Below are positions 4,822 to 10,447 of a DNA stretch of 64,000 nucleotides, piece by piece (position 1 is the first letter of the stretch; the number at the start of each line of letters is the position of its first letter). The translations under genes and the position numbers were made by a program. The DNA is from Planctomycetota bacterium. GTDB lineage: Bacteria; Planctomycetota; JAJSAM01; JAJVHW01. A model generated the notes under the pieces. It was given only the letters and a program-made list of their open reading frames with translations, searched no databases and was not told the origin of the DNA. The DNA is taken from the NCBI GenBank assembly GCA_965248445.1, contig CBDFJG010000004.1, forward strand, positions 672,001-736,000. Direction: 5' to 3'.

Positions 4822-5189
4822 GCGTCGCTCCGATCCGGATCTAGGTGAAAGACAGCGCCTCGAAGACGGTCGGGAGGCCGTTGCTCCGGCCTCGACCGGG
4901 CTCCCCCCTATGGGCACCGGCGCCCGAAACTCGGGCGTAAAGCGGCACTCTCCCCGAATGCGCGCCCCCGTTCCAAGGCATTCCGCACGGCCGGGTTCGC
5001 CTCGGTGGGCTCGGCCACCCATGGCCGGTGCTCGCCCCGCCAGCGTCCTAGGAGAGTGGCGCCCCGGTCCGGCCGCAGCGCTCGGCGGCGCTGCCTCGAC
5101 TGGATGCTCGGAACGCGCTGCCCGGGGCCGTAGCGTCGGGGGTTCGACAGAGATGAGGCAGCGCGCTTCGCGCGCGACACGAGGTGGAC

Positions 5190-8100
5190 ATGCACGAGAG
5201 TGACAGCGCTTCAGGCTCGGCGTACGTTCGGCATCCGACCATCCGCGGAGACCGCATCGCGTTCTCGGCCGAGGGTGACCTGTGGGAGGCGGACGCCGGC
5301 GGCGGCGACGCGCGGCGGATGACGAGCAGCGCAGCGGTCTGCTCGTTCCCCCGCTACTCCCCCGACGGAAAGTACATCGCGTTCAGTTCGGCAGACGAAG
5401 GACCGCCCGCGGTGTGGGTCATGCCGGCAGGCGGAGGGCCCGCGCGGCGGCTCACGTTCCACGCGACCCCGGACCAAGTGGTGGGCTGGTCGCTCGATTC
5501 GGAGCACGTGGTCTTCCGCACGCTCTCCGTGGTGGGTATCCGCGCGTTCACGCTGGCGCGCGTTCCTGTCGGCGGCGGCGCCGTGGAGGGTCTGTCCTAC
5601 GGCCGCGGCACCGGTATCGCGTATCACGCCGACGGCGACCGCGTCGCGCTGCACCGCCACGGCGGAGATCCCGCGTGGTGGAAGCGTTACGCCGGCGGCC
5701 GCGCAGGGCGCCTCTGGATCGGTCGTCACTCGACGGGCGAGTTCGAACCAGTCCCCGGCGGACCGCGCACCGACGCGTGTCCGATGTGGATCGGCGACCA
5801 GTTGTGGTTCCTCTCCGATCAGGACGGGATGGGCGACATCTGGTGCGCCGATGCCGACGGTAGCCACCGGCGGCGGGTCACGTCGCACGACGCGTACTTT
5901 GCGCGCCACCCCGAGCAGGATGCCGGACGCATCGTGTACTCGATGGGCGGCCGCCTCATGCTCCTCGACACGAACGAGATCAACCCGGAGCCGCGCGAGA
6001 TCCCGGTCAGCGCACGCGGGCACTCCGTCACGTCGCGCCGCAAGTTCGTCTCGGCCGCAGACGGCGTCGAATCGCACGCTCTCTCGTTCGCGGGTTCGAC
6101 TGCCCTGTTCAGCATTCGCGGCCGCGTCGCAGCGCTTCCCTGCTGGGGTGGCGCCGCTCGCATCATCGCCGCCCCGGACGGCGTTCGATTCCGATGCGCA
6201 CGTCCACTCGGCAACACCGGCCGGTTCGCGGCGATCGCGCAGTGGGACGAGAACAGTCATGTCGTCCTCATTCCCGAGGACGGCATCGGCAACGACATGT
6301 CGCGAGCCACGGATCTCGGCCACGTCGGGCGCCGGATCCGCGCGATCGAGGTCAGCCCGGACGGAAAGCGGATCGCGGTGCTGGATCAAGGCCGTGGCGT
6401 CCATGTGATGACGCTGTCGGAGGACGGTTCGTCGGCCGAGACCGTGATGGTCGACGACGACGGCCAGTCATGGGTGCGCCGTGCCGCGTGGTCGCCGTGC
6501 GGAACCTGGCTCGCGTACGCGCGGCAGTTGACGTGGTGGTCCAGCCACCTGTTTCTCTGGAACGTCGTGACCGGCGAGCGGACACCGCTCAGCACGGGCG
6601 AATTCTCCGACGCGGCGCCGGACTGGGATCCTGCCGGGCGCTTCCTGGCGTTCCTCTCGGCCCGTGAACTCGATCCCGTGTACAGCGCCGTGCAGCACGA
6701 CTTCGAGTTCGTCGCCCCGACGCGCGCGTACGCCATCGCCTTGCGCAAAGGCGAGCGACTGCCGTTCGCGGCAGAAGCGGAGCTCCCGCCGAAGGAAGTC
6801 GAGCCCGTCACCGAGCCCCTCGCCGTCGATCTCGACGGCATACAGGATCGCGTCGCGGTGCTCCCCTTCAAGCCGGGCAACCTCACGCAGGTGCTCTGCG
6901 CGACGAGCGGTGTGGGCGTGGTGCGCTATCCGACGGTCGGCGCGCACGCGAGCGAGGACGAGCAGCACGCGGGGCCGAACGCGAAGCCGGCGAAGCTCGA
7001 GATCCTCGACCACCGCGAACGCGAGGTGCAGACGGCCGTGGACGGCATGAGCGGCGCCTCCGCGTCCGGGGACGCCAAACGCTGGATCGTCCGCGCGGGC
7101 AAGCGCTTCCGCGTGATCGACGCCGCCAAATCGAGGGAGGAGAACCCGTTCAAGAAGAAGAAAGACACGTCGACCCCGTCGTCGGGGTGGCTCGACCTCG
7201 GGCGCGTCCGCTTCCACGTGACCCCACGCGCCGAGTTCGGACAGATCCTGCGCGAGGCGTGGTCGCTGCAGCGGGATCACTTCTACGATGAGGGTCTCGT
7301 CAGCGTCGACTGGGACGCGTGCCTCGAACGCTACTCCGCCCTGCTTCCGCGCATTCGCACGCGCGAGGAGTTGATCGATCTCCTGTGGGAGATGCAGGGC
7401 GAACTCGGCACGTCGCACGCCTATGCGTTCGGAGGCGACGTTCCGGCCGAGAAGCAGTACTCGCCGGGCCTCCTGGGCTGCGACTTCGCCCAGGACGGGA
7501 CCACCGGCGCCTATCGGATCGACCGCATCTACCGCGGTGACCCTTGGCAGGAGAAGCAGCACTCCCCGCTCGCCGCGGCCGGTGTTGAAGTCTCCGAGGG
7601 CGACTGGCTCCTCGCCGTCGACGGACTCCCCGTCGGGCGCGAGACCCACCCAGGTGAACGACTCCTCGAACGGGCGGGCAGATCCGTTGTGTTGCGCCTT
7701 GCGGCGTCTGCCGACGGCGCGGACGCGCGTGACGTGACGGTCACCCCGACGCGCGACGAGACGCTCTTGCGATATCGCGCGTGGGTCGACGACAACGAGC
7801 GCCGGGTCAGCGAGGCGAGCGACGGTCGCGTCGGCTACATCCACATCCCGAACATGGGGCCGTGGGGCGCCACGGAGTTCCACCGCACGTTCCTCTGGCA
7901 GGTGATCCAGAAGCGCGCGCTGGTCGTGGACGCTCGCTACAACGGCGGCGGCAACATCTCCGCCATTCTGCTGGCGAAGCTGATGCGCCCGATCATCGGG
8001 TGGACGTTCACCCGCTACGGCGGTGCGCGGACGTACCCCTCCCACGCGCCGCTCGGCCCGATCGTCGTGCTCACGAACGAGAACGCTGGGAGCGACGGCG

Positions 8101-8438
8101 ACATCTTCTCCCAGGCCGTGAAGTCGGTCTCGCTCGGTCCACTGATCGGCATGCGCACCTGGGGCGGCGTGGTCGGCATCGACATGGCGAAGACGCTGGT
8201 CGACGGTGGTCAGACCTCCCAGCCGGAGTACGCGTTCTGGTTCCCCGGCGTCGGGTGGAGCGTGGAGAACCACGGAGTCGAACCGGACATCGAAGTCGAC
8301 CTGACACCGGCCGATGCGTTGCGGGGCGCTGACCCGCAGCTCGACCGCGCGATTCACGAGGTCCTGACCCGCCTGGAGGCTACGCCGCCGGTACCTCCCG
8401 ATCCGGGTCCGCTGCCCAATCTGCGCCACCCGGCGTGA
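5190..8438 (+). CDS. Tricorn protease homolog (S41 peptidase, beta-propellers plus PDZ)
   Basis: PD40-like repeats; GELGTSHAY, GYIHIPNM, DARYNGGG, catalytic AGSDGD, GMRTWGG and ENHGVEPD motifs. Confidence 0.93.
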   Translation: MHESDSASGSAYVRHPTIRGDRIAFSAEGDLWEADAGGGDARRMTSSAAVCSFPRYSPDGKYIAFSSADEGPPAVWVMPAGGGPARRLTFHATPDQVVGWSLDSEHVVFRTLSVVGIRAFTLARVPVGGGAVEGLSYGRGTGIAYHADGDRVALHRHGGDPAWWKRYAGGRAGRLWIGRHSTGEFEPVPGGPRTDACPMWIGDQLWFLSDQDGMGDIWCADADGSHRRRVTSHDAYFARHPEQDAGRIVYSMGGRLMLLDTNEINPEPREIPVSARGHSVTSRRKFVSAADGVESHALSFAGSTALFSIRGRVAALPCWGGAARIIAAPDGVRFRCARPLGNTGRFAAIAQWDENSHVVLIPEDGIGNDMSRATDLGHVGRRIRAIEVSPDGKRIAVLDQGRGVHVMTLSEDGSSAETVMVDDDGQSWVRRAAWSPCGTWLAYARQLTWWSSHLFLWNVVTGERTPLSTGEFSDAAPDWDPAGRFLAFLSARELDPVYSAVQHDFEFVAPTRAYAIALRKGERLPFAAEAELPPKEVEPVTEPLAVDLDGIQDRVAVLPFKPGNLTQVLCATSGVGVVRYPTVGAHASEDEQHAGPNAKPAKLEILDHREREVQTAVDGMSGASASGDAKRWIVRAGKRFRVIDAAKSREENPFKKKKDTSTPSSGWLDLGRVRFHVTPRAEFGQILREAWSLQRDHFYDEGLVSVDWDACLERYSALLPRIRTREELIDLLWEMQGELGTSHAYAFGGDVPAEKQYSPGLLGCDFAQDGTTGAYRIDRIYRGDPWQEKQHSPLAAAGVEVSEGDWLLAVDGLPVGRETHPGERLLERAGRSVVLRLAASADGADARDVTVTPTRDETLLRYRAWVDDNERRVSEASDGRVGYIHIPNMGPWGATEFHRTFLWQVIQKRALVVDARYNGGGNISAILLAKLMRPIIGWTFTRYGGARTYPSHAPLGPIVVLTNENAGSDGDIFSQAVKSVSLGPLIGMRTWGGVVGIDMAKTLVDGGQTSQPEYAFWFPGVGWSVENHGVEPDIEVDLTPADALRGADPQLDRAIHEVLTRLEATPPVPPDPGPLPNLRHPA

Positions 8439-8510
8439 GCCCAATTGCGTGATAGAGTTCATGGGTTCGGACGGGTTGCCCTGACCCGCCGACCGGACCG
8501 GGAGGCCCTC

Positions 8511-9350
8511 ATGCGCACGCGTCACTTCTTCGTCCTCGGAGCGCTCGCGCTCGCACTGACCACGTTCAACTCCACGTCCGCCGAAGCGGGTTGATGCCCT
8601 CGCGGAGGAGGTGTCGCCGGCGGCGGCATGAGCGCGGGCGCGGGAATCGGCGGCGGCGGATTCGGCGGAGCTGCTGCATCCGGTGTGGCCGGCGAGGGCA
8701 CGACCACCGGCATCGTCTGGATCGAGGCGGCGCTCACCGCGCCGGCCGCGATCACCGGTGAGGCCGCTACGAAGGAAACGCTCGAGCAACACCTGCACAA
8801 GATCCTCGAGTCGAGCGAGTGGGACCCCAAGCCGACGTTGCTCTACTTCCATCACGAGCACGACGTCGACGAGGAGGAGGGCGAGAAGCTCACAGCGCAG
8901 GGCAAGCTGAGCCTCAAGCAGTGCAAGTCGCTCGACGACGAGAAGGTCGCGCGCTGGAGCCAGCTCTACAAGTTCGTCGAGGTGAACGTGCCGACGAGCG
9001 AGAACGAACTGCTCGCACGCTTCAAGGCAGGCAACGGGCCGTCGTTCACGATCATCAACCAGGACCTCGAAGTGAAGGCGTCGAGCGGCACCCTCGGCAA
9101 TTCGAAGGGCGTCGTCTCGTTCCTGCAGTCGACGGTGAAGAAGCACTTCCCGGACTACTGGAAGCAGGTCCAGGACCGGCTCGACCTGCAGAAGAAGGCG
9201 CTCAAGGACGCGCGCTCGCTCGAGAAGTCCAAGAAGTACGACGAGGCGCTGGACCGCGTTCGCGAAGTCACGGGTTCGCAACTCCGCATCGGACCGCAGT
9301 ACGACGACGCCGTCAAACTGGGAGCCAAGATCCGCAAGAAGCTCGACTAG
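8511..9350 (+). CDS. Putative secreted selenoprotein (UGA at codon 28): signal peptide, G-U-C, Gly-rich linker, thioredoxin-like domain, helical tail
   Basis: GGAGG at 8501-8505 and ATG8511 give MRTRHFFVLGALALALTTFNSTSAEAG-TGA(8592-8594)-CPRGGG, in frame with the 8628-9350 ORF; KPTLLYF...PSFTII thioredoxin-like pattern. Confidence 0.7.
8595..8640 (+). promoter_or_regulatory. Candidate bacterial SECIS element
   Basis: Apical stem GTGTCGCC(8611-8618)/GGCGGCAT(8622-8629) with a G-containing loop 24 nt after the UGA; basal pairing TGCCC/GGGCG. Confidence 0.45.
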
Positions 9351-9352
9351 AG

Positions 9353-10447
9353 CTAGCGGCCGCGGATCCGGCGCAGCGCGTATCGGGTGCGCAGGAACAA
9401 CGTGAGGCGGTGCTCCTTCGGGAGCATCGCCTCCGTGCGTTCCAGGAATGCGCGCACGGCGGGCCGATGGGCCTCCCGATCGCCGCGCGTCCATGCCCTC
9501 GCGCAGGCAACACGCTGCCGGTACCACGCCAGCCGACCCGACCGCTGGGGGCGGATCGATCCGCTGTCCACGATCTGGAACGCCGTGCCGTCGTAGATGA
9601 GGTTGTCCGCGTTCAAGCCGCTCACGAACGTGTGCGCCTTCACGAGCTTCGCAAGCAGACCTGCCAGAGCGAGAGCCCGCGGATCGTCGGCACGGACGAG
9701 AGACTCGTCGTCCTCCCGCAGCAGCATGCCGAGCGACGACCCCGCAACGTACGGCTGCAAGATCGTACGGCCGTCCGGCGCCCACGCCGCCACGGCGCTC
9801 GAGACGCCGAGACGTCCCCACTCGAGCGAGCGGCGCACCTGGGACTCCAGGTCCCGCCGCGTGCGCGGCCCGTCGTCGGCCGGGATCTTCCACGCGAACT
9901 CGGCGCCGTCGGAACTCCGACGAACGCGCGCGACGCGCGACGTCTTGCCGGACCCGAGGCGCAGGTCCACGAGTTCGTAACCCGCGGGCACTGCCGGAGT
10001 GACCGAATCGAGCAGGCTCTGCATCTCGCCCGCATCGCACGCGTCCACGAGACGCAGCCACGCCGCGCGCTCGGCGTACGAACTCAGCGTGAGGGCGTGG
10101 TAGAGCAGATCGAAGATCGGCGCTTCGCCGTGCAGATCGACGAACACGAAACGGTGCAGGTGCGCGCGCAGTTCATCGTCGGCGTGGCCCACCACCGCGC
10201 GCAACAGCGGCGCCGAGCGCCGTACGTCCGGACGGCGGAGCAGTGTTTTCGCGAGCGTCGCAGCCCCCTCGGCACCCGTCCGGTCCAGCGACGCGGCGAG
10301 CGTCGCTTGCATGGCGGCGGCATCCTCGCCGCGGAGTCCGGCGGCCACCTGATCAACAGCCGCCTCACTGTCGACGCCACGTAGCCGGGCGAGCAGCGCG
10401 ATCGGTCCAGCGCCCGCAATCCCTCCGGAGTCGTTCGTCGCTGTCAC
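9353..10447 (-). CDS. Protein-kinase-like (probable pseudokinase) domain protein
   Basis: LGSGKTS Gly-loop, FAWK lysine, GLNADN in place of HRDLKPxN, DSG in place of DFG. Confidence 0.6.
   Translation of the reverse strand: MTATNDSGGIAGAGPIALLARLRGVDSEAAVDQVAAGLRGEDAAAMQATLAASLDRTGAEGAATLAKTLLRRPDVRRSAPLLRAVVGHADDELRAHLHRFVFVDLHGEAPIFDLLYHALTLSSYAERAAWLRLVDACDAGEMQSLLDSVTPAVPAGYELVDLRLGSGKTSRVARVRRSSDGAEFAWKIPADDGPRTRRDLESQVRRSLEWGRLGVSSAVAAWAPDGRTILQPYVAGSSLGMLLREDDESLVRADDPRALALAGLLAKLVKAHTFVSGLNADNLIYDGTAFQIVDSGSIRPQRSGRLAWYRQRVACARAWTRGDREAHRPAVRAFLERTEAMLPKEHRLTLFLRTRYALRRIRGR

Follow-up and report, generated by a model that had tools for sequence, protein, structure and literature searches.

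A gene at positions 8511-9350 of the window (the whole 64,000-nucleotide stretch analysed here, positions 672,001 to 736,000 of contig CBDFJG010000004.1 from a Planctomycetota bacterium, assembly GCA_965248445.1) appears to encode a member of an exported selenoprotein family in which selenocysteine (Sec) is carried on a flexible N-terminal arm. Judged from sequence, this family is real and widespread and, it appears, previously undescribed. When the in-frame TGA at codon 28 is read as Sec, a reading that is almost certainly correct, the region forms a single 279-codon gene whose parts follow in the order of signal peptide, G-TGA-C motif, Gly-rich linker, thioredoxin fold, and TPR-like helices (Table 1).

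Layout of the read-through gene

The sequence bears out each element on which the initial annotation had built its reading, namely the GGAGG motif, the ATG at 8511, the leader ending in A-E-A, the GGT-TGA-TGC codons, and the continuous frame into the 8628-9350 ORF. Its suggestion that the ORF start had been misplaced within the Gly-rich linker also holds, the called ATG at 8628 having no RBS-like motif upstream and codons 1-27 scoring as coding (0.18 in the gene's frame versus -0.70 and -0.49 in the other two); this ATG, which opens a 240-aa ORF, is not conserved among homologues. The signal peptide was called by eye and with a hydropathy rule. A lipoprotein reading of U28/C29 was considered but finds little favour, as the residues ahead of G-U form a polar stretch with P/S-A-x-A. 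No match to a sigma-70 promoter or a terminator was found between 8300 and 9500.

Table 1. Features of the Sec-arm gene in window coordinates
Feature	Positions	Strand	Basis or remark
Shine-Dalgarno GGAGG	8501..8505	+	5 nt upstream of the ATG; sequence
Signal peptide, codons 1-26, ending A-E-A	8511..8588	+	presumably signal peptidase I type; hydrophobic leader also in homologues
G27-U28-C29 (GGT-TGA-TGC; TGA 8592-8594)	8589..8597	+	predicted mature N-terminus; TGA in 70/75 homologues
Gly-rich flexible linker, residues 30-67	8598..8711	+	pLDDT mostly <50 in both models; first codons also encode the hairpin
Candidate bacterial SECIS hairpin	8611..8629	+	8-bp stem, GGC loop 8619-8621, 24 nt past the UGA; fits published model
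Thioredoxin-fold domain without CxxC, about residues 68-212	8712..9146	+	structure comparison, Foldseek
H114-x-x-H117, end of strand 2	8850..8861	+	H114 in 26/27 and H117 in 27/27 close-clade members
G131-K-L-S134, positions of the lost CxxC	8901..8912	+	alignment with two CxxC/UxxC thioredoxins
C138, sole Cys of the folded domain	8922..8924	+	one helical turn past the second-Cys position; 27/27 in close clade
P177, taken to be the thioredoxin cis-proline from general thioredoxin topology	9039..9041	+	72/75 members
C-terminal TPR-like helices and TAG stop (9348-9350)	9150..9350	+	helices 214-278 in model; TPR profile match; Foldseek

Directly upstream on the same strand lies a gene for a tricorn-type S41 protease (window 5184-8438). 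Loci L024 and L025 share this arrangement; in other clades the neighbours are instead gcvT/Mo-hydroxylase, Clp, or unrelated genes. A convergent 364-aa ORF without a Pfam match (window 9353-10447, minus strand) ends 2 nt from the stop of the Sec-arm gene. Operon context was set aside as a clue; a scan of 84 neighbouring proteins revealed neither a shared gene neighbourhood nor a redox context.

Conservation and predicted decoding of the UGA codon

The read-through protein was matched in 11 of 60 relatives, with 14 other copies whose tips read G-TGA-C right behind a signal peptide in ten cases, G-TGA-TGA in one (L023), T-TGA-P in one (the paralogue L010), and Cys in one (L009), the last copy (L017) being without an arm. 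When 1.84 billion representatives were searched with a profile, 87 matches came back; nearly all of the best 56 of these are annotated without a leader, and one of them, P0027, is complete and has a Cys immediately after A-E-A. For ten proteins that were looked up, a source name was present in two, 'hypothetical protein' or 'TPR repeat protein'. At the level of the phylum, 59 of 401 sampled genomes gave matches to a profile built from 43 sequences, and N-termini were inspected at these and at the order-level matches, 95 rows in all. Eight rows had no leader by the rule applied (four with a Sec tip, two cut by the locus end, one frameshifted with its Cys visible, and one fusion), one further row was a repeat, and 11 more were dropped: two that began at false internal starts, a duplicate, four proteins of classical thioredoxin type, and four family-like proteins without Sec (L089, L119, L122, and L125, of which L122 has a tip Cys).

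A TGA stands shortly after the leader in 70 of the 75 homologues with a readable N-terminus, or in 70 of 79 if the four dropped family-like rows are restored, and the 70 span 53 genomes and 22 Planctomycetota families (counted by hand). With the codon conserved in so many genomes, an assembly error is not a tenable explanation. A single public contig spanning the TGA is identical to the window, though it is possibly the source of the window DNA, and the assembled contigs of public runs X5-X7 held no matching piece over the TGA. The tip motifs comprise U-C, C-U, U-U, U-x-U, and U-x3/4-C, including G-U-C, G/Q-C-U, G-U-G-U, and U-E-N-U, and the Sec lies 10-145 residues upstream of the thioredoxin domain across members. 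Every arm stop is a TGA, with no TAA or TAG among the 70, and Sec alternates with Cys at the tip, as seen in L009, L094, P0027, and L122. The comparison at codon 28 that the initial annotation had proposed thus gave TGA kept or exchanged for Cys, and in no homologue do Trp, Arg, or Gly take its place. Two paralogues in the genome under study form a pair of this kind, L009 (G000:C3:1483134-1484078, minus strand) with Cys26 and L010 (G000:C1:333768-334718, minus strand) with TGA26; they are sisters in the tree (SH-aLRT 93), a quick version in which deep branches are open. A close clade of 27 members, defined by similarity and motif, forms one branch of the same quick tree (SH-aLRT 83). Three of the 75 proteins (L017, L097, and L118) lack both Sec and Cys at the tip, which indicates that the domain can persist without the arm.

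Several observations were made alongside these comparisons. In several genomes, two to five family members stand in tandem, at L092 (G030:C51:35600-47500), L100, L060, L063, L077, L105, and L106, and one of two tandem members at L077:1200-1530 is frameshifted in a Gly-coding run after its Cys, by an assembly slip or as a pseudogene. L090 (G055) holds a conventional gene for an exported thioredoxin-like protein with U-G-Y-C, a type of selenoprotein already described. A pattern scan of metagenomes gave 81 stretches, none of them confirmed.

The genome, 92% complete, encodes selA, selB, selD, and a tRNA-Sec with anticodon UCA, the full set that the initial annotation had asked for; selB lies about 58 kb from the Sec-arm gene, and selD itself carries one in-frame TGA. 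Matches to selA were found in 55 of 58 carrier genomes versus 287 of 401 in the phylum sample, a contrast between kin that are not independent. TGA forms are present in two of the three carriers without a selA match (G075, which is 80% complete, and G159), and the missing matches are tentatively attributed to incomplete assemblies. In family f3, three of four genomes have two full-length selB-like matches, and the fourth has three partial ones.

That UGA28 is instead a true stop, a nonsense mutation, an assembly error, or a Trp or Gly codon under another code, with the 240-aa ORF from 8628 as the product, is scarcely credible. TGA is the commonest stop in this genome, ending 748 of 1196 long genes, and public databases list the 240-aa form, as this alternative would have it. 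The exclusive use of TGA on the arms and its exchange with Cys speak against a stop, as do the unconserved ATG at 8628 and its missing RBS, and an alternative genetic code is ruled out by the presence of RF2 together with the predominance of TGA as a terminator.

The published SECIS model calls for a hairpin 16-37 nt after the UGA with a G in the first two loop positions; the Sec-arm gene passes it, yet the same is true of 75% of the gene's synonymous shuffles. In the family as a whole, 56 of the 70 TGAs pass against 36.5 expected, as do 108 of 400 true TGA stops. A narrower pattern, chosen after the data had been seen (a loop of at most 5 nt starting GG or GU, 16-28 nt away), follows 40 of the 70 TGAs in the family, where 13.2 would be expected, but 11 of 400 true TGA stops, which also argues against termination; the relatedness of members inflates all of these SECIS contrasts. 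Folding energy was tried as SECIS evidence and gave no signal (z -0.49 for this gene; family mean z -0.10), and the stability of this gene's hairpin is not greater than that of synonymous shuffles (z 0.4). A hairpin of the bacterial SECIS type is enriched family-wide; for this gene alone the result is not significant.

The thioredoxin fold, the lost CxxC, and the arm

Two AlphaFold2 models agree on a confident domain behind a disordered N-terminal part, with pLDDT mostly below 50 for residues 1-63 in one model and a mean of 47 for the first block in the other. Residues about 68-212 match Staphylococcus aureus Trx2 best (4ruv; Z 11.9, with 104 residues superposed at an rmsd of 2.0 A); 1vrs (Z 11.7) and 2ju5 (Z 11.2) are also among the closest, Foldseek likewise returns thioredoxins, and a profile match to 3fk8 has an E value of 2.5e-4. 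With the whole protein, the best Foldseek matches are the Trx+TPR proteins YbbN/CnoX (E 2.5e-4, TM 0.31-0.33, 14% identity), and the family profile of the C-terminal helices matches consensus TPR proteins, so that a TPR-like part is to be added to the architecture first proposed.

The initial annotation had described a thioredoxin-like domain that had lost its CxxC except for a Cys in 'LKQC'. Both the fold and the loss are confirmed; the remaining Cys (C138), however, is no remnant of the motif, as it is placed four residues past the position of the second Cys. Where helix 2 begins and the CxxC would be expected, the sequence reads G131-K-L-S134 and contains no Sec, which is at residue 28. Among the 75 members, none has a Cys in the first-Cys column, and the second-Cys column holds one in 22 of 48 distant members and in 1 of 27 close-clade members; the cis-Pro position is retained almost throughout (Table 1). 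Since the set of H114, H117, and C138 is confined to the close clade, HxxH..C was rejected as the defining site of the family.

Comparisons with described families gave no counterpart. NCBIfam release 20 returned no family for the read-through protein, no selenoprotein model among the matches of 43 homologues, and no model matching the family alignments, and nothing in Pfam exceeded the cut-off for the query protein. In a 2026 table of 119 selenoprotein families, which includes those of Haft and Tolstoy 2025, no entry was matched to this layout (PMC13188914); neither this paper nor the main texts of deep-Sep and BSepDB mention 'signal peptide' or 'Planctomy'. Literature searches, with a coverage that excludes most subscription journals, likewise found no description of the family. 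The claim that this is not a described selenoprotein family therefore stands as far as NCBIfam, Pfam, and the catalogue are concerned. Selenoproteins of planctomycetes such as FdhA and FmdB have been reported, according to the accessible part of PMC4807772.

The catalogued bacterial thioredoxin-fold selenoproteins include Trx UxxC, Prx-like, DsbA/DsbG-like, and TlpA UGC families as well as Trx7/PDZ CxxU, Trx-like Sec.1 CxU, and Sec.2 UxC (PMC13188914 Table 1), and none of their NCBIfam models matched the Sec-arm protein. It shares with them a UGA followed by an in-frame hairpin, a thioredoxin fold, and alternation of Sec with Cys; in the catalogued proteins, however, the Sec motif is of active-site type, whereas here the predicted Sec lies upstream on a disordered arm and the first Cys of CxxC is lost in 75 of 75 members. 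The closest fold and profile matches, which share the helix-2 register, are DsbD gamma, DsbH, and the Xylella disulphide isomerase 3fk8, exported CxxC thioredoxins that differ in having an intact CxxC and no Sec arm.

Mammalian thioredoxin reductase, a flavoenzyme whose SECIS lies in the 3'-UTR, carries a Gly-Cys-Sec-Gly arm at its C-terminus. Its arm and the one described here are alike in that a flexible terminus presents Cys and Sec side by side as a proposed electron shuttle; they differ in the terminus used, the C-U order, the flavoenzyme body, and the place of the SECIS, and no homology is claimed. The algal PDI_e, a eukaryotic protein with a GUGUU motif for which the accessible part of PMC7539508 reports no bacterial homologue, is likewise thioredoxin-like with clustered Sec, and G-U-G-U and U-U also occur in the present family; the comparison, in which the tip of the Sec-arm gene is GUC, is one of motifs as described in that part of the source. 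YbbN/CnoX (PDB 3qou, 3qdn) resembles the Sec-arm protein in joining a thioredoxin domain with a degenerate CxxC to C-terminal TPRs and in using a redox-active Cys outside the canonical motif, as the accessible part of PMC8129009 describes. It differs in having two five-helix TPR subdomains and no Sec (same part of PMC8129009), the Sec-arm protein having a signal peptide, a Sec arm, and roughly one TPR unit of three C-terminal helices.

We hold it somewhat probable that the Sec/Cys pair on the tethered arm is a redox centre replacing the lost CxxC nucleophile. SelB and tRNA-Sec would decode UGA28 as Sec, aided by the hairpin in the following codons, and export followed by signal cleavage would leave a mature protein beginning G-U-C. 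On an arm of about 40 flexible residues, the pair would take over the job of the missing cysteine, swinging between substrate thiols, disulfides, or peroxides at the cis-Pro groove and the TPR part and a second thiol, either C29 or C138 beside H114/H117. The exported protein would then serve in thiol-redox catalysis or as a redox chaperone, possibly re-reduced by a DsbD-type system.

This redox reading is supported by the position of the TGA shortly after the signal peptide, the swapping of Sec and Cys in the tip motifs and between the paralogues L009 and L010, the family-wide SECIS and selA contrasts along with the Sec machinery, the absence of the first CxxC cysteine with partial retention of the second, and the persistence of the cis-Pro position; the genome also encodes one DsbD-family transmembrane domain. 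A second Cys or Sec is present on the arm in 64 of the 70 TGA members and a Cys in the active-site helix in 45, and only three have neither. Against it stand the AlphaFold2 models, neither of which docks the arm with confidence, and a variable Sec-Cys spacing, with the two residues side by side in some members and further apart in others, which would not be expected of a precise catalytic motif. Helix Cys is absent in 25 of 70, the mature protein of L117 is entirely without Cys, L017, L097, and L118 lack a chalcogen at the tip, neighbours are not conserved, and this gene's hairpin does not exceed its shuffles; these points, too, weigh against a redox arm.

The main rival is metal capture, in which the tip of the selenoprotein would take up or hand over a soft metal (Cu, Zn, Ni, or Hg) through its N-terminal amine and Sec/Cys, sharing it with H114, H117, and C138. 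We consider this unlikely. In its favour, the His/His/Cys set is nearly invariant as a unit in the 27-member close clade, the Sec of most members falls between mature positions 1 and about 3, and the U-x3-C spacing of some members may resemble the hook of Ni-SOD. Metal-binding Sec proteins with CU motifs are also on record, and metals take part in the majority of predicted Sec-ligand interactions (PMC13188914, section 7). Among the 48 distant members that retain Sec, however, most do without the His/His/Cys set, and the scan of 84 neighbouring proteins showed no recurrence of genes for metal resistance or transporters.

Still more doubtful, though it draws on the top fold matches, is a covalent tether or protective cap, whereby the tip would bond through Se-S or Se-Se to clients or envelope proteins, in the manner of the mixed disulfides of CnoX, or to another copy, and the Trx+TPR body would serve as a non-catalytic holdase or scaffold. 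CnoX offers a precedent, as the mixed disulfides by which it protects clients are formed with a Cys that is not part of its SxxC motif (accessible part of PMC8129009). Members with a lone Sec exist, and an unrelated 782-aa exported protein of the same genome bears a similar U...C tip, with Cys at that place in its single homologue. However, the match to CnoX is poor (TM 0.33, 14% identity), and CnoX is cytoplasmic; moreover, the arm partners in 64 of 70 members favour an internal pair over a tether.

Candidate Sec tips elsewhere in the genome and implications

A genome scan for an RBS, a hydrophobic leader, a stop, and a coding continuation returned seven TGA, one TAG, and one TAA cases; relaxed to omit the RBS, it returned 13 TGA, 20 TAG, and one TAA, with eight of the TAG cases being one repeated sequence. 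The 782-aa exported protein just mentioned (G000:C2:723197-725545, plus strand; L128:3198-5546) has TGA as its first mature codon, a Cys eight residues on, and no Pfam match; the one homologue that 17 genomes yielded (L134) carries Cys in place of the TGA. A 217-aa exported protein (G000:C4:1662829-1663482, plus strand; L130), encoded next to two transposase genes, starts G-U-x5-C with a G-first hairpin and looks like a distant fourth member of the Sec-arm family. An 86-aa exported protein (G000:C4:226642-226902, minus strand) has U-x-x-C directly after its signal peptide, and a 748-aa exported protein (G000:C4:1781396-1783642, plus strand), which presumably resembles the DUF1223 thioredoxin-like proteins, has its in-frame TGA in a U-x-x-C motif. 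At G000:C3:1285185-1286564 (minus strand), a TGA lies within the signal peptide where Trp would fit, giving A-stop-A before the cleavage site; a nonsense change or an assembly error is more likely here than Sec.

These other exported proteins suggest that the tip is a portable module, for which the evidence is thin so far. It is a possible, though tentative, extension that Planctomycetota possess a portable selenium tip, in which Sec stands at the newly cut N-terminus and the Gly/Pro-rich linker doubles as the SECIS; here it would replace the first Cys of the thioredoxin to give a split active site with a swinging-arm nucleophile, and elsewhere it would be grafted onto unrelated exported domains. 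If so, a whole class of selenoproteins would be hidden by gene callers.

The family itself points to a systematic annotation error, as databases list its proteins without signal peptide and Sec, forms that are then read as cytoplasmic hypothetical or TPR proteins. Its natural U-C, C-U, U-U, and U-x-U variants offer material for studying what is gained by Sec in place of Cys, and members with two UGAs for asking how a single hairpin decodes both. By its predicted sequence, the family is apparently a variant of the thioredoxin-fold selenoproteins, missing as a layout from the 119-family catalogue: where the catalogued members hold Sec within an active-site motif, it would here have moved to a flexible tip at the processed N-terminus of a disordered arm, on a domain from which the nucleophilic CxxC cysteine is gone.
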